Assembly (NCBI GenBank): GCA_965215605.1
Contig: OZ244070.1
Span: 3,104,001 to 3,168,000 of the forward strand
Length of the DNA stretch: 64,000 nt
Direction: 5' to 3'
DNA from: an uncultured Candidatus Binatia bacterium
GTDB taxonomy: Bacteria; Desulfobacterota; Binatia; UBA9968; JAJDTQ01
The notes below the pieces were generated by a model. The model searched no databases. It had not been told where the DNA came from and was given only the letters and a program-made list of their open reading frames with translations. Positions 23,656-35,388 of this stretch are shown one piece after another (the first letter of the stretch is position 1; each line of letters begins with the position of its first letter). The position numbers and the translations under genes are program-made.

Positions 23656-24077
23656 GCGAGTACAACAAGCCGCTGCCGCCGCCGACCGTGGAATCCGAGC
23701 CCTTCTGGGACGGGTGCAAGCGCCACGAACTGGTGGTGCCCCGCTGCGACGCCTGCTCGAACCACTGGTTCCCTCCCACCGCCACCTGCCCCGAGTGCTG
23801 GAGCACCGAGTGGACATGGACCCGGGTGAGCGGCAAGGGAAAGGTCTATTCGTTCGGCGTCTACCACCGGGCCTACCACAAGGGGTTCGCCGACGAGCTG
23901 CCTTACGCCCTGGTGGTGGTGGAACTGGAAGAGGGTCCGCGGCTCACCACCAACGTGGTGGGCTGCAAGCCCGACGAGTTGAGCTGCGACATGCCGGTGG
24001 AGGTGGTGTTCGAGGAAGTCACCGACGACCGGACCCTGTACAAGTTCAAACCCGTGAACGATAGTTGGCGGAGGTAA
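23652..24077 (+). CDS. DUF35 Zn-ribbon/OB-fold protein (ChsH2-C-like)
   Basis: ATG overlaps the thiolase stop. PFWDG, CDAC...CPEC, VELEEGPRL. Confidence 0.9.
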   Translation: MSEYNKPLPPPTVESEPFWDGCKRHELVVPRCDACSNHWFPPTATCPECWSTEWTWTRVSGKGKVYSFGVYHRAYHKGFADELPYALVVVELEEGPRLTTNVVGCKPDELSCDMPVEVVFEEVTDDRTLYKFKPVNDSWRR

Positions 24078-24079
24078 TC

Positions 24080-25249
24080 ATGCTGCACAGCACCGAACGC
24101 ATTCTTGTGACCCATACCGGCAGCCTGCCGCGCCCGCGACAGCTCATCGACATGATGCTGGCCGAAAACGAGGGCAGCCCCGTCGATCCGGCGGAGTACG
24201 AGGACAAGCTCCGGGGCGCGGTCCACGACATCGTGCGCCGGCAGATGGACCTGGGCGTCGACATCGTCGACGACGGCGAGCTCAGCAAGCGCGGGTTCGC
24301 GGTCTATGCCCACCAGCGGCTCGACGGCCTCAGCCCCACCGGCCGGGTGCGGGTGTCGCCCTGGGACAACTCCCGGGAATCCCAGGCGTTCCCGGAGCAC
24401 TACGGGTACTACAGCCCGGTGCCCGGAGCCAAGCCCAACCCCAGCAACATGCAGATGGCCTGCACCGGCCCCATCGCCTACAAGGCCCAGGAGCGCGTGA
24501 CGCAGGACCTGGCGAACCTGAAGGCCGCGGTGGAGGAAGCCGGAGCCGCGGAGGCCTTCGTGCCGGCCATCTCCCCCTGCGACGTGGCCGGTAACCAGGA
24601 GAACGAGTACTACAAGAGCGACGAGGAGTTCCTGTTCGCCATCGCCGAAGCCCTCAGCGTGGAATACCGGGCCATCGTCGACGCCGGCTTCCTGCTCCAG
24701 ATCGACGACCCGCTGCTCATCAACTACTACGTCAAGAACCCGGAACTGAGCATGGCCCAGTGCCGCGCCTGGGCCGAAGGTCAGATCGAGGCCATCAACC
24801 ACGCGCTGCGTGACATCCCCGAGGACCGGGTGCGCTACCACACCTGCTACGGCATCAACATGGGTCCCCGGGTCCACGACATGGAGATGAAGGACTACAT
24901 CGACATCGTGCTCAAGATCCGCGCCGGCGCCTTCTCCTTCGAGGCCTCCAACCCGCGCCACGAGCACGAGTGGACCATCTGGAAGGACATCAAGCTGCCC
25001 GACGGTAAACTCATCATCCCAGGCGTCATCACCCAGTCGTCGGTGGTGGTGGAGCACCCCGAGCTCATCGCCCAGCGCCTCGAACGCTTTGCCAGCGTGG
25101 TGGGCCGTGAGAACGTCATCGCCGGCAGTGACTGCGGCTTCGGCACCCAGGCTCTGGAGGTCCCGGAAATCCACCCCGCTATCGTCTGGGCCAAGTTCCA
25201 GGCCATGTCGGAGGGGGCAAGGCTGGCGAGCGAGCGGCTGTGGGGGTGA
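24080..25249 (+). CDS. Cobalamin-independent methionine synthase II / epoxyalkane:CoM transferase-like protein
   Basis: THTGSLPRP, DDGE, QIDDP, Zn ligands in YHTCYG and DCGFGT, EASNPRHEHE. Confidence 0.88.
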   Translation: MLHSTERILVTHTGSLPRPRQLIDMMLAENEGSPVDPAEYEDKLRGAVHDIVRRQMDLGVDIVDDGELSKRGFAVYAHQRLDGLSPTGRVRVSPWDNSRESQAFPEHYGYYSPVPGAKPNPSNMQMACTGPIAYKAQERVTQDLANLKAAVEEAGAAEAFVPAISPCDVAGNQENEYYKSDEEFLFAIAEALSVEYRAIVDAGFLLQIDDPLLINYYVKNPELSMAQCRAWAEGQIEAINHALRDIPEDRVRYHTCYGINMGPRVHDMEMKDYIDIVLKIRAGAFSFEASNPRHEHEWTIWKDIKLPDGKLIIPGVITQSSVVVEHPELIAQRLERFASVVGRENVIAGSDCGFGTQALEVPEIHPAIVWAKFQAMSEGARLASERLWG

Positions 25250-25421: not shown

Positions 25422-26630
25422 ATGGATGCGGAATCGCGCGTCTACGATGCGTTACTGGCCGAGCATTTGGCTGCCAACCGGCAGATGGCGTTCGTCAGCG
25501 GGCCACGGCAGGTAGGCAAGACTACGACGTGCCGGCGTCACGCCGACAACTACTGCAACTGGGACAATCTCGATGACCGGGAACTGGTGCTGGCGGGTCC
25601 GGCCGACCTTGCCGTCGCCATGGGGGCGAACCGGCTCTCCAGCGCAACGCCGGTGGCGCTCTTCAATGAGCTTCACAAGTTCCCTTCCTGGAAGCCGTTC
25701 CTGAAAGGGTTGTTCGACACCTACGGAGACGGGCTTCGCGTCATCGTCACCGGCAGCAGGCGACTGGACGTCTACCGCCGGGGCGGTGACAGCCTGATGG
25801 GGCGGTACTTCGCCTATCGGATGCATCCGTTCTCCGTGGCCGAGGTGGTAAGCAGGGAGCTTCCCGACGCGGAGCGGATCGTCCGGGCTCCGGGCCGGAT
25901 CGACGCGGCCGATTTCGAAGCGCTGTGGCGTCACGGAGGATATCCGGAGCCGTTCCTCAAGCGCGACATGCGTTTCAGCCGCAGGTGGCGTTCGCTGCGC
26001 CTCGCGCAACTGGTCCGGGAAGACATCCGCGACCTCACCCAGGTTCAGCAGATCGACCAGTTGGAGGTGCTGGTCCAACGATTGAGCCGGCAGTCCGGGC
26101 GTCAGCTCGTGTACGGCAACCTCGCCAGGGAGGTACGCGTGTCAGCGGATACGATCCGCCGGTGGGTGGCCGCCTTGTGTGATTTCCACCTGGGCTTTCT
26201 GGTCAGGCCGTGGTTCCGGAACGTCTCGCGATCGTTGCGCAAGGAGCCCAAGTGGTACCTGAGAGACTGGGCGGACATCGCGGATGCTGGGCAGAAGGCG
26301 GAGACTTTCGTCGCGTGTCACCTCCTCAAGGCAGTCGACGGCTGGAACGACATGGGCCTCGGCCGGTTCGAGCTCGGCTATCTGCGTGACCGGGAGAAGC
26401 GGGAAGTGGATTTTCTTGTTACCCGCGAGGGGAAGCCTTGGTTCCTCGTCGAGGTCAAGCACCGCGACGAGTCCATGAGCCGGACGCTCAAGTACTACCA
26501 GGAACATCTCGGCGCACCGTTTGCGTTCCAGGTGGTCGTCGATGCCGACTATGTCGACGCCGACTGTTTCGCAAGGCCGGGGCCGCCGCTCGTCGTGCCG
26601 GCCAAGACCTTCCTGTCCCAGCTCCTGTAA
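25422..26630 (+). CDS. AAA_14/DUF4143-type ATP-binding protein with a C-terminal PD-(D/E)xK-like domain
   Basis: GPRQVGKT Walker A, IVTGS, GGYPEP, KEPKWY, EVDFLV...VEVK. Confidence 0.88.
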   Translation: MDAESRVYDALLAEHLAANRQMAFVSGPRQVGKTTTCRRHADNYCNWDNLDDRELVLAGPADLAVAMGANRLSSATPVALFNELHKFPSWKPFLKGLFDTYGDGLRVIVTGSRRLDVYRRGGDSLMGRYFAYRMHPFSVAEVVSRELPDAERIVRAPGRIDAADFEALWRHGGYPEPFLKRDMRFSRRWRSLRLAQLVREDIRDLTQVQQIDQLEVLVQRLSRQSGRQLVYGNLAREVRVSADTIRRWVAALCDFHLGFLVRPWFRNVSRSLRKEPKWYLRDWADIADAGQKAETFVACHLLKAVDGWNDMGLGRFELGYLRDREKREVDFLVTREGKPWFLVEVKHRDESMSRTLKYYQEHLGAPFAFQVVVDADYVDADCFARPGPPLVVPAKTFLSQLL

Positions 26631-26632
26631 CT

Positions 26633-26674
26633 TTGTCAACGCCGTTGACAACACGAATGCCCCTTCGGTAATGT
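26633..26674 (+). promoter_or_regulatory. Palindromic operator overlapping the -35 of the selenoprotein operon promoter
   Basis: TTGTCAAC-GCC-GTTGACAA at 26633-26651. TTGACA at 26645-26650, 18-nt spacer, TAATGT at 26669-26674. Confidence 0.55.
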
Positions 26675-26697
26675 CTCGCAGATAGCTCACGCGTGCG

Positions 26698-27300
26698 ATG
26701 GAGGGCCTCATGGGAAAGCTGGAGATGCTCGATCCGCGGGCCGATGTTCTCCTGGAGAACCATCCGCCCGTTCCGGGTTTGGATGATTTGACGGGGAAAG
26801 TGGTTGGGATCATCGATAACGGCCAAGCCAACTCGAGCCCGATGTTCGAGGAGTTGGCGCGGCTCATCGAGGAACAGACGGGCGCCGCGGAGGTGCTGCT
26901 GCGGAAGAAGCCGAGCCACATGAATGCGGCGCCGGGGGAACTGATCGAGGAGATGCTGAGCCGGTGCGACGCGGTCGTCACCGGCCTCGGTGCTTGAGGG
27001 TCCTGCACGTCGTGGAGTGTCCACGACGCCATCGAGATCCAGAAGCGCGGCACCCCTACGGTGACCCTGTGCCAGACCATCTTCATGGAGCTGGGCCGGA
27101 AGGAAGCGGTGTTCTTCGGCATGCCGCAACTGCCGCTGGTGCAGATCCCGCACCATCCGAGCGGCGGCGCCCGGCCGGGTGAGCACGCCGAGGATGCGAG
27201 AATCGCCATCGGTCCGGTGCGCGAGACCCTGACGGACGCCGATGCGGCCGAGTCTGAGCCGGCCGGCGCCGCGGGAGTTGAAGCCCAAGCGGCCAAATAG
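26698..27300 (+). CDS. UGSC-family selenoprotein (TGA 26995-26997 = Sec; UxxC motif)
   Basis: Track ORFs 26698..26997 and 27061..27300 are in the same frame with no other stop between them. Read-through gives DAVVTGLGA-U-GSCTSWSVHDAIEIQKRGTPTVTLC. A hairpin follows the TGA. Alternative start ATG 26710. Confidence 0.88.
26998..27040 (+). promoter_or_regulatory. Bacterial SECIS-like hairpin
   Basis: Upper stem CGTCGTGGA (27008-27016) / TCCACGACG (27020-27028) with loop GTG. The loop G lies 20 nt after the TGA. Possible lower stem GGGTC/GATCC. Confidence 0.75.
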
Positions 27301-27340
27301 TGCATCGGCGGACATCCGACACCACGCGCACCCTTCACGC

Positions 27341-28432
27341 ATGGCTACCGATACCCCACAGGTGAAGCTCGTTTCCGAAGTCATCGAGGTAGAGGACTCG
27401 CTGGAGGCGGTCAACGACTGGTTCTGCGACCGCCAGCTAAGCGACGGCCTGCCCATCGTTCCGCCCACCCGGGAACGGGTGGAGCGGATGCTCACGGGCA
27501 CCCGCCGCGATCCCCAGGAGATCATCGGGCAGGTGCCGCCCAAGTGGGCGCCGGCCACCGTGGAGAAGATCGCCGTCAGCAGCGTGATGGCCGGGTGCCT
27601 GCCGGAGTACCTGCCGGTGGTCATCGCCGCGGTGGAGGGGATCATGGAGCCCCGCTTCAACCTCTACGGCGTCCAGGCCACTACCGGTTACGCAGGTCCG
27701 GCGCTGCTGGTGAACGGTCCGGTCCGCAACGAGCTGGGCATCAACTGCGACGCCGGGGTGTTCGGCCCGGGCCATCGCGCCAACGCCACCATCGGCCGCG
27801 CCATCCGTCTGATCCTCATCACCGTCGGCGGCGGCTATCCCGGCGATACCGACCGCGCCACCTTCGGCTGGCCTGGCAAGTACAGCTTCTGCTTCGGCGA
27901 GAACGAGGAGAAGAGTCCCTGGGAGCCCTACCACGTGAGCCGGGGCTACAAGCCCGAGCAGAGCACGGTCACCGTGTGCGGCATCAACGGCTTCATCCCC
28001 ATGCACACCGCCGGGAGTACGGGCCAGGAGGCGCTGTCGTCGCTGGCCGAGGTCATCGCCATGCATCACGGCGGCAGCCACCTGGACGTGGGCAGCTTCG
28101 GCGGCGGCACGCCGCTGGTGGCCCTGTGCACCGAGGACGCGGAGATCATAGCGCGGGACGGCATCACCCGGGCCGACATCCGCGAGTACCTCTGGGAGCA
28201 TTCCACAATCACCTTCGCCAGCATCCCGGACCGCCGCAAGGGCACCAAGAACGACGAGGAACTGCTGCGGGAGTCGCCCAACGTCACCCCCGACGGCATC
28301 GTGCACCTGGCCACCCGGCCCGACGACATCATGGTGATCGTGACCGGCGGCAAGCACCGGCACTGCGTGCTGTTGCCGATGTGGACGGGTCGGAACACGC
28401 TGGCCGTCACCAAGCCCATACGGACGGCATGA
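27341..28432 (+). CDS. Conserved hypothetical protein, partner of the UGSC selenoprotein
   Basis: SDGLPIVPPT, TVEKIAVSSVMAGC, GVQATT, NATIGRA, CFGENEEKSPW. Coding-like codon usage, 40 nt after the selenoprotein stop. Confidence 0.8.
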   Translation: MATDTPQVKLVSEVIEVEDSLEAVNDWFCDRQLSDGLPIVPPTRERVERMLTGTRRDPQEIIGQVPPKWAPATVEKIAVSSVMAGCLPEYLPVVIAAVEGIMEPRFNLYGVQATTGYAGPALLVNGPVRNELGINCDAGVFGPGHRANATIGRAIRLILITVGGGYPGDTDRATFGWPGKYSFCFGENEEKSPWEPYHVSRGYKPEQSTVTVCGINGFIPMHTAGSTGQEALSSLAEVIAMHHGGSHLDVGSFGGGTPLVALCTEDAEIIARDGITRADIREYLWEHSTITFASIPDRRKGTKNDEELLRESPNVTPDGIVHLATRPDDIMVIVTGGKHRHCVLLPMWTGRNTLAVTKPIRTA

Positions 28433-28498
28433 CGATCCCGCCTCTCGTTATCCTCACTACGATTTCAGGAAGGTCGCGTTAGCGAACAAGGAGCGTCC

Positions 28499-29713
28499 AT
28501 GGATTTCAATCTGCAAGAAGACTCGCCGGAGATGACCGAATTCCGCAAGGAAGTCCGGGCCTGGATGGAAGAGAACATGAAGGGCTCGGAGCACCTGAGG
28601 TGGTCGGCGTCGTGGTCCACCCGGGAGGACGAGGAGGAGTACGGCTTCCGCCGCGGCCTGGGCGAGAAGCTGGGCAAGAAGGGCTGGCTGTTCCCGATGT
28701 ATCCGGAGGAGTACGGCGGCGCCGGCCTCACCGTGGACCACCAATTCGTGCTGGAGACCGAGCTGGCGCGTTACGGCCTCAACCTCACCCACATCTTCTA
28801 CACTCTGGCGCGCATCGTCGCGCCGGTGCTGCTCCACTGGGGCAGCGAGGAACAGAAGCGCGAGTTCCTGCCGCCCATCGCCCGGGGCGAGATCGTGGTG
28901 TGGCAGGTGCTGACCGAGCCCCAGAGCGGCAGCGACGTGGCCAACTGCCAGACCCGCGCCATCCGCGACGGCGACGACTACATCGTCACCGGCCAGAAGG
29001 TGATGGTGGGGCACCACCTGCCGCCGGACGTCCTGTGGACGCTGGTGTGCACCGACCCCGACGGCAAGCGCCACGAGAACCTGGGCTGGCTGCACATCCC
29101 GGCCAACCTGCCGGGGATCACGATTCAGCACATGCACCTGATGATGGGCATCAAGAACGCGGTGTTCTTCGACGGCGTGCGGGTGCCCGCCAAGTACCTT
29201 GTCGGCGGCGAGAACAACGGCTGGAAGGTGGCCCACACACACCTGGAGCTGGAGCACGGCGGCGACGGCCGAGTGGGCACTGACCCGGTGGTGGACCGGG
29301 TGGTGGAGTACTGCCGGAACCACGAGGTGGGCGGCAAGCCGCTCATCGAAGACCCCCACGTGCGCGACACCATCGCGGACATGATCCTGGAGATCAACAC
29401 GGTCAACCGCATGAACCGGCGCATCTTCTGGCACCGTTTCGTCAAGGAGCCGCACGCCTACGGCGGCGCCCAGTTCCGCTACTACCAGCGCATGGCCCGG
29501 CTCAGGAACGGCGAGCGGCTGCAGAAGATCATGGGCGCGGACGCGCTGATCCCGGACCACAGCGTGCACGAGGTGCTGGACTTCGAGTACGTCATCCGCA
29601 GCGGCCCGGGCCAGCTTCACGGCGGCGGCACCCTCGACACCGACCGGCTCATCTTCGCCCGTCGCGCCGGCATCGGCCGCCAGACCAGGGAGAAGGCGCC
29701 GGATACGGTGTAG
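28499..29713 (+). CDS. Acyl-CoA dehydrogenase family protein
   Basis: PEEYGGAG, LTEPQSGSDVA, VTGQK, VFFDGVRVP, GGENNGW, GGGT. Confidence 0.9.
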   Translation: MDFNLQEDSPEMTEFRKEVRAWMEENMKGSEHLRWSASWSTREDEEEYGFRRGLGEKLGKKGWLFPMYPEEYGGAGLTVDHQFVLETELARYGLNLTHIFYTLARIVAPVLLHWGSEEQKREFLPPIARGEIVVWQVLTEPQSGSDVANCQTRAIRDGDDYIVTGQKVMVGHHLPPDVLWTLVCTDPDGKRHENLGWLHIPANLPGITIQHMHLMMGIKNAVFFDGVRVPAKYLVGGENNGWKVAHTHLELEHGGDGRVGTDPVVDRVVEYCRNHEVGGKPLIEDPHVRDTIADMILEINTVNRMNRRIFWHRFVKEPHAYGGAQFRYYQRMARLRNGERLQKIMGADALIPDHSVHEVLDFEYVIRSGPGQLHGGGTLDTDRLIFARRAGIGRQTREKAPDTV

Positions 29714-34389: not shown

Positions 34390-35388
34390 CTACAGCTTCA
34401 GCAGCCTCCGCGCATTCGCCTCCAGGATCGCCAGCTTCTCCTCCTCCGGGCAGTCCAGCGCCTCCACCTTCTCCACCGCGTTCCAATCACCCAGCGGGTA
34501 CGGGTAGTCCGTCCCGACCATCAGGTGCTCCCACCCCAGCAGGCTCTTGAGGTACTCCAGGGTGTCCACCCGGTAGACCAGCGCGTCAGAGTACAGGTTT
34601 TTGAGGTAGGCGCTTGGCTTGTCCTGGGCCTCGGCGTCCGCCGCCCCCGGCCGTACCCCGAAGCCTTGGTCGAAACGCCCGAGGTGGTAGGGGAAGAAGC
34701 CGCCGCCGTGCAACGTGCAGAGTTTCAGATCGGGAAACCGGTCGAACACGCCGCTGTAGGTCATGAAGCCCAGCGAGAGGGCGGTGTCCGCGGGGTTGCC
34801 GCAGATCAGGAACAGGCCGTAGGCGCCCATGCGCTCGAGCCCGGCGATGTCCTCAGGGTGCATGACGATGAGGGCGTCCAGTTCCTGCGCCTTGCCCCAG
34901 AAAGCATCGAACTCATGGCTCCTGTAGTACTCGCCGTTGACGTTGGTGCCGATGTAGGCCCCCGCCAGCCCGTGCTCGAGGATGCCGCGCTCCAACACCT
35001 TCGCGGCCCGCTTGGGGTCCTGCAGCGGCACCGCCGCCAGCGCGGTGAACCGGTCCGGGTGCCGGGTTCTGAGCTCCATCAAACCCTCGTTGTAGAGGTT
35101 GCACCAGGTCTCTCCCTGCTCCGGGTTCAGCCGGTAGCCGAGGCAGGCGGTGTGGGGTTCCAGGGTCGCCAGGGCGATCTTGCCCTTGTCCATGTTCGCC
35201 AGCCGCTTCTCCACGTCCATGAGCGGCGGCGGCACCACGAAGCTCGGTCCGCCGCCGATGGTGACGGTGTTGAGGCCTTCCGGGGTGCTGCCCACCTCCG
35301 TGCCCACGGCCTTGCCGTGGGCCTTCAGCTCCTCGATCAGGCCCGGAGGCATGTAGTGGTGGTGAATGTCGATGGCACAGGTATGCAT
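34390..35388 (-). CDS. Amidohydrolase family, ACMSD-like decarboxylase/hydratase
   Basis: IDIHHHYMP, AVPLQDP, IVMHP, GVFDRFP, HGGGFFP, VGTDYPY. Confidence 0.9.
   Translation of the reverse strand: MHTCAIDIHHHYMPPGLIEELKAHGKAVGTEVGSTPEGLNTVTIGGGPSFVVPPPLMDVEKRLANMDKGKIALATLEPHTACLGYRLNPEQGETWCNLYNEGLMELRTRHPDRFTALAAVPLQDPKRAAKVLERGILEHGLAGAYIGTNVNGEYYRSHEFDAFWGKAQELDALIVMHPEDIAGLERMGAYGLFLICGNPADTALSLGFMTYSGVFDRFPDLKLCTLHGGGFFPYHLGRFDQGFGVRPGAADAEAQDKPSAYLKNLYSDALVYRVDTLEYLKSLLGWEHLMVGTDYPYPLGDWNAVEKVEALDCPEEEKLAILEANARRLLKL

Follow-up and report, generated by a model that had tools for sequence, protein, structure and literature searches.

The window, a stretch of DNA of 64,000 nt, contains on its plus strand two neighboring small open reading frames (ORFs), 26698-26997 (99 aa) and 27061-27300 (79 aa), and raises the question whether they are two genes or a single gene in which the TGA codon at positions 26995-26997 is decoded as selenocysteine (Sec, U). 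The two ORFs were obtained by mechanical listing. The original prediction, according to which ORF callers split one frame at this TGA, was borne out by the sequence and by its translation with TGA as U: from ATG 26698 to the stop codon TAG 27298-27300, TGA 26995-26997 is the sole internal stop. The read-through product from ATG 26698 has 200 residues and contains ...CDAVVTGLGA-U-GSCTSWSVHDAIEIQKRGTPTV..., with the peptide DAVVTGLGA-U-GSCTSWSVHD around the Sec position. Since GGAGGG is present at 26700-26705 and the nearest homologues start at a Met that aligns to ATG 26710, ATG 26710 is the likelier start of the gene (26698-27300, plus strand). With this start, the protein would have 196 aa. 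The Sec of the U-G-S-C motif is U100 when counted from ATG 26698 and U96 when counted from ATG 26710. The 67-nt gap 5' of the gene harbors the perfect palindrome TTGTCAA-CGCCG-TTGACAA (26633-26651, no strand assigned), which may be an operator or a -35 region. A scan of positions 26400-28700 for consensus promoters and terminators found none.

The read-through protein matched the Pfam family PF24696 ("UGSC") with 146.7 bits (cut-off, 25), residues 9-179 covering profile positions 1-171 of 172. With the NCBIfam equivalog model NF041046 it scored 111.5 bits, which is under the cut-off of 125; a fused relative (locus L032) scored 135.6 bits with the same model. The motif of the family, U/C-G-S-C, is present as GA-U-GSC. 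In an alignment of 24 sequences, S102, C103, T104, S105, and D110 were invariant, and G101 was invariant or nearly so. According to the accessible parts of the literature, the "UGSC-containing protein" was described as a selenoprotein of unknown function by Zhang and Gladyshev in 2007 (PMC1976440) and was analyzed again by the same authors in 2008 (PMC2398784). The latter article counts, in the GOS data, 255 forms with Sec and 21 with Cys, places UGSC among the most abundant predicted selenoprotein families of aquatic metagenomes, and lists a fusion of UGSC with an unnamed domain ("UGSC/Unknown_1"). The family is also included in a review from 2022 (PMC9312934) and in one from 2026, where the functions of such families are called still largely uncharacterized (PMC13188914). 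Thus, the assignment to the UGSC family agrees with both the Pfam match and the published descriptions. The gene had also been called hidden, and this is true for ORF callers only, because the family is already catalogued and some of its members are named by NCBI. With the family in print, the window protein shares the full-length PF24696 match, the U-G-S-C motif, the alternation of Sec and Cys, and the SECIS-like hairpin; it differs in belonging to a soil-type subfamily (GLGA-U-GSC) that lies below the NF041046 equivalog cut-off.

An AlphaFold2 model of the UGSC protein, based on 24 sequences (pLDDT 87.2, pTM 0.81), showed five parallel strands alternating with helices in an alpha/beta sandwich. 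In this model, strand 92-98 is followed by Sec100 and by helix 101-116, the third helix, in agreement with the predicted placement of the redox motif after a strand and before a helix. Structural matches were generic, of the flavodoxin, CheY, and periplasmic-binding types (Foldseek TM ≤ 0.47; VIA Z 9.3-11.2). Thioredoxin was absent among the listed Foldseek and VIA matches, an absence from a list that does not exclude the fold. When the UGSC profile was compared to PDB sequences, nothing meaningful was retrieved (best E 0.24).

Downstream of the UGSC gene, 40 nt from its stop codon, lies a gene for a 363-aa protein (27341-28432, plus strand), which we refer to as the partner. No Pfam or NCBIfam family matched the partner above cut-off, and the same was true for 60 of 60 homologues, although such homologues are numerous (at least 6576 at E ≤ 0.001 among 8000 candidates scored). 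Both the UGSC gene and the partner gene are single copy in their own genome. Over 323 aa, the partner shares 40% identity (E 6e-78) with the C-terminal portion of the fused relative mentioned above, a 542-aa protein that carries the UGSC domain with its TGA at the N terminus and is thus a natural fusion of the two. Of the UGSC copies, 79 had sufficient flanking sequence; among these, the partner was found downstream within 800 nt or fused in 76 and directly upstream in 2 (L022 and L023); the remaining copy (L048) had no partner within 800 nt, though 2029 nt of downstream DNA was available. Furthermore, in a scan of a genome collection seeded with Cys-form homologues of UGSC, which yielded 80 loci mostly labeled Acidimicrobiia or other Actinomycetota, the partner gene immediately precedes UGSC, in the same orientation, in all 80 of these actinobacterial-type loci. 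The pairing of UGSC and partner is therefore nearly universal: it is found across distant lineages, in both gene orders, and in some cases as a fusion. Within the genus of the window, the gap between the two genes measures 40-50 nt. Among the nearest relatives from metagenomes, UGSC and partner are separated by a 137-aa ORF (L050:878-1291; gaps of about 500 nt match it in 48 copies of UGSC), which by eye we take to resemble a DUF559-type endonuclease.

An alignment of the partner revealed an invariant Cys86 in A-G-C-x-P-E-Y, a nearly invariant Cys184, and the invariant residues N148, R153, K180, E187, and W194. Its AlphaFold2 model was of high confidence (pLDDT 92.3, pTM 0.92). In the comparison of this model to the PDB, no convincing relative was detected: the best Foldseek match, a class I fumarate hydratase, had an E of 2.1e-3 at TM 0.25, and the best VIA match reached Z 6.1 over 91 residues.

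We consider it very probable that the locus encodes a UGSC-family protein of about 196 aa with a UGA-decoded Sec. This protein would form an enzyme of two parts with the partner and serve as its redox subunit. A genuine selenoprotein could also act alone, as a thioredoxin-like thiol-disulfide oxidoreductase, with the partner as a mere passenger. UxxC is indeed a classic redox motif, and clusters with relatives of the partner are automatically named thiol-disulfide oxidoreductase or thioredoxin in the ESM Atlas. However, the five-stranded parallel sandwich of the UGSC model has its best matches elsewhere, as described above, and against a mere passenger stands the near-universal pairing with UGSC, which spans distant lineages and either order of the genes. 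We therefore regard a protein acting alone as improbable. A redox role in an enzyme shared with the partner remains the preferred reading.

The conservation of the TGA was analyzed in several sets of homologues. The UGSC family was present in 52 of 61 related genomes, including 27 of 27 from the same genus. Together, the 61 genomes contained 85 UGSC matches, of which 82 had exactly one in-frame TGA; the other three were partial and lay on one side of the TGA site. The TGA was also present at the Sec site in all 80 metagenome loci that were fetched with one of the four closest public proteins. More distant homologues have Cys instead: DCGSC or HCGSC was found in 18 of 18 full-length homologue rows without a TGA-derived W, and among the 80 loci of the scan seeded with Cys forms, the site was TGC or TGT in 75 and TGA in 5. 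Thus, the UGA is conserved among orthologues and is replaced by Cys in other homologues, which was among the checks that the original prediction had proposed. As a side observation, one genome of the same order (G029) contained 12 UGSC matches; several fall within ORFs of 535-590 codons and are fused forms. This points to a strong paralogue expansion of the UGSC module.

These data also bear on the reading of the TGA as a true stop, in which case the locus would either encode two distinct proteins, one of 99 aa and one of 79 aa with GTG 27061 as its start, or be a pseudogene. Mechanical ORF calling yields exactly these two ORFs, and TGA is a normal stop codon in this genome. However, the family's most conserved peptide is encoded in the 63 nt that separate the TGA from GTG 27061, decay would not keep a TGA in frame throughout the related genomes, and the Cys homologues are single, uninterrupted proteins. 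Moreover, the two halves were never observed as separate genes, since in every full-length copy the frame runs through the TGA. We consider a true stop very unlikely.

The genome encodes the machinery for decoding UGA as Sec, the presence of which had been proposed as a check. The genes selA, selB, and selD are contiguous (C1:1984272-1988341), and a tRNA-Sec with the anticodon UCA was also found; all scored above the curated cut-offs. The selD gene (C1:1984272-1985198, L018) itself has one in-frame TGA, and because of this codon, selenophosphate synthetase is probably also a selenoprotein in this genome. At the same time, TGA terminates 14 of 33 long nonoverlapping ORFs of the window, including the partner gene, so the organism has no general sense reading of TGA.

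In the four closest public protein calls (P0002-P0005), the Sec site is occupied by W, which would mislead a homology test for Cys or Sec if the DNA were left unchecked. Since the underlying DNA has TGA in all 80 metagenome loci, this W is, judged by the codon, an artefact of gene callers using a table in which TGA means Trp, and there is no Trp codon. Decoding of the TGA as Trp or a different standard residue, by an alternative code or by near-cognate read-through, is consequently hardly credible: what speaks for it is the W of these four proteins, whose DNA has TGA and not TGG, whereas TGA regularly ends other genes of the window, Trp never occurs at the site in the distant homologues, which have Cys, and a complete Sec system is at hand. 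Public gene calls thus cut such genes in two or translate them with Trp, and in either case a probable selenoprotein goes uncounted. In summary, the observation was confirmed, and the interpretation given to it by the original prediction is supported; each of the refuting conditions named there was examined, and none applied. The gene is very probably a real selenoprotein gene of a catalogued family with its usual partner; as a discovery it is ordinary, and it is a sound and well-documented example.

A SECIS-like hairpin is located in the coding sequence (plus strand, positions 27008-27028), in the codons for T-S-W-S-V-H-D, and was analyzed by folding and by comparison. It has a 5' arm at 27008-27016, a GUG loop at 27017-27019, and a 3' arm at 27020-27028, with nine Watson-Crick pairs. 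There are 10 nt between the UGA and the stem, which begins at the 11th nt, so stem length, loop, and start are exactly as originally predicted. The apical loop starts 19 nt past the UGA, inside the range of 16-37 nt given for bacterial SECIS elements in the accessible part of PMC10778597.

Folding of the single sequence gave no excess stability. The energy of a 66-nt segment had a z of -1.40, with 16 of 200 shuffles as good, and that of a 42-nt segment had a z of -0.85, with 36 of 200 shuffles as good; this DNA has 66% G+C. RNAalifold, applied to 80 distinct homologous stretches, kept no more than three pairs, those at the apex (-1.16 kcal/mol), and the hairpin matched no Rfam family, apart from a single chance hit with E 4.9. 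Thus, in the proposed check by RNA folding, the hairpin forms, but its single-sequence energy is no better than that of shuffled sequences; its support is comparative.

When the nine pairs were examined in 80 distinct sequences, standard pairs were present in 90.6% of the cells compared to 86.0% after shuffling, and none of 500 shuffles reached 90.6%. Changes on both sides were found in seven of the nine stem pairs, and the covariation score was 0.122 versus 0.056. If the 3' partner was shifted by 1-3 columns, pairing dropped to 16-51%. The two outer pairs were weak (60 and 52 of the 80 sequences), and the inner seven were paired in 74-77. These sequences share ancestry, and one of them served as the source of the structure; the statistics are therefore indicative and are not to be read as probabilities.

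Several paralogues have a hairpin at the same place in spite of a completely different peptide. In L140, T-P-A-V-V-R-A replaces T-S-W-S-V-H-D, yet an 8-bp hairpin is present at this position (z -3.66); a hairpin is likewise kept there in L136 (z -3.13), L024 (z -3.83), and L125. Two other paralogues fold poorly (L022, z +0.50; L141, z +1.31). Among the 80 loci of the scan seeded with Cys forms, all 5 TGA forms had every one of the inner seven pairs; of the 75 Cys forms, only 4 did so, and their mean was 4.05 of 7 over the whole set.

In addition, codon usage was compared between Sec and Cys forms that encode the identical peptide GSCTSWSVHD (48 and 12 distinct sequences, respectively). The Ser codon of the loop was AGT in 48 of 48 Sec forms but in 0 of 12 Cys forms, all of which had AGC. 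Likewise without exception in the Sec forms (48/48 each), Val was encoded by GTC, another Ser by TCG, and His by CAC, while the Cys forms used these codons in 4, 10, and 11 of 12 cases, respectively. Within this comparison, synonymous sites are frozen only where a UGA must be recoded, which matches the prediction of an RNA signal; because the compared sequences are akin, the figures from shuffling and from Fisher tests treat them as more independent than they are. Energy aside, the predicted hairpin is supported by comparison, namely by compensatory changes and by the fixation of synonymous codons.

The SECIS of Escherichia coli requires an apical G/U and a bulge. In common with an E. coli fdhF-type SECIS, the element in the window lies within the ORF shortly downstream of the UGA, forms a hairpin, and has a G in the apical loop. 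It differs in its 3-nt loop and its perfect 9-bp stem without a bulged U. By analogy to the known bacterial mechanism, the hairpin at 27008-27028 would recruit SelB together with Sec-tRNA(Sec), leading to insertion of Sec instead of termination.

The UGSC protein was also compared to GrdB/PrdB, the selenoprotein B of glycine/sarcosine/betaine reductase and of D-proline reductase, for which the models Pfam PF07355 (GRDB) and TIGR01917 exist. An hhalign comparison of UGSC to a GRDB profile built from ten PF07355 genes gave a probability of 93% (E 3.4e-7); the alignment spans 86 columns, places the two Sec residues opposite each other, and pairs UGSC residues 89-182 with GRDB residues 338-426. 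In line with this, a pairwise BLASTP comparison matched UGSC to a GRDB-type protein (E 2e-4 over 30 residues), and TIGR01917 gave weak matches across the Sec region of UGSC. When the 24 UGSC sequences were compared to the Pfam GRDB model itself, none gave a match at E ≤ 10. This model stops just before Sec in the GRDB genes of the same genome, and in 30 of 30 PF07355 genes examined in the order, the Pfam match ends at the TGA. UGSC and GrdB/PrdB have in common a strand, U-G-[ST]-[CS]-T, a helix, and a G-x-P-T-V strand, with a UxxC-type motif in both. In contrast to GrdB/PrdB (about 430 aa), UGSC has about 200 aa and lacks the N-terminal 340 residues modeled by Pfam GRDB, and the likeness is confined to the C-terminal 86 columns. 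Judged by profiles, the C-terminal half of UGSC is similar to that end of GrdB/PrdB-type reductases which carries Sec. As far as the retrieved text portions go, a full-text literature search found no published link between UGSC and GrdB/PrdB.

The genome of the window has three PF07355 genes of its own, C1:684606-685890 (L222), C1:1888261-1889560 (L223), and C1:3429883-3430932. The first two continue past an in-frame TGA for 81-85 more residues, and their read-through products contain ...VILTST-U-GTSTRSGAA... and ...VILTSA-U-GTCTRCGAA..., respectively. A GRDB-family protein of this genome had no match among PDB sequences at E ≤ 0.01. The partner was also considered as a counterpart of the N-terminal GRDB region, and this was rejected (hhalign probability, 0.1%). 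Since the partner has no similarity to the GRDB family, a GrdE- or PrdA-like role for it is unsupported.

The nearest mechanistic model for UGSC is the Sec-bearing C-terminal module of GrdB/PrdB-type reductases, in an analogy to glycine and D-proline reductases that extends to the shared Sec module only. Sec would be positioned at the N terminus of the third helix, with the Cys of U-G-S-C three residues on, and the two could cycle between the selenol/thiol and selenenylsulfide states. UGSC and partner would form a complex in which UGSC, as the redox subunit, supplies reducing equivalents for reactions at conserved residues of the partner (Cys, Arg, Lys, and Glu). UGSC would then be recycled by a thiol system; no thioredoxin gene was found among the window ORFs scanned. 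A more specific proposal, which we make tentatively and rate slightly below an even chance, is that UGSC and its partner of about 360 aa constitute a widespread Se-dependent two-subunit reductase of aerobic soil and water bacteria, in which the Sec subunit derives from the module at the GrdB/PrdB end, the catalytic partner is without a relative of solved fold, and the substrate is a small molecule. The family itself has, according to the accessible literature, been in print since 2007-2008. The gene points to an unsolved enzyme. Its near-obligate partner and its kinship with the GrdB/PrdB Sec module provide a concrete two-protein target for biochemistry.

Other genes around the pair in the window are a MetE-like gene (24065-25249), a gene for an AAA_14/DUF4143 ATPase, an acyl-CoA dehydrogenase gene, TctC/TctA transporter genes, and an Amidohydro_2 gene (34390-35388). 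At other loci, the neighbors include Amidohydro_2, luciferase-like, MmgE/PrpD, cupin, and binding-protein genes. Beyond the UGSC-partner pair, only Amidohydro_2 recurred, in two clusters with 41 and 21 of 200 loci; the ORF clustering behind these counts put pieces of UGSC and of the partner together in a single cluster and gives a rough guide only. The ATPase gene (25422-26630) lies between the MetE-like gene and the UGSC gene. In eight loci from the same genus, it was complete in four and partial in two, and at two loci (L034 and L039) the MetE-like gene is directly upstream of UGSC in its place. Judging by this patchy presence, the ATPase gene appears to be an insertion that varies among loci.
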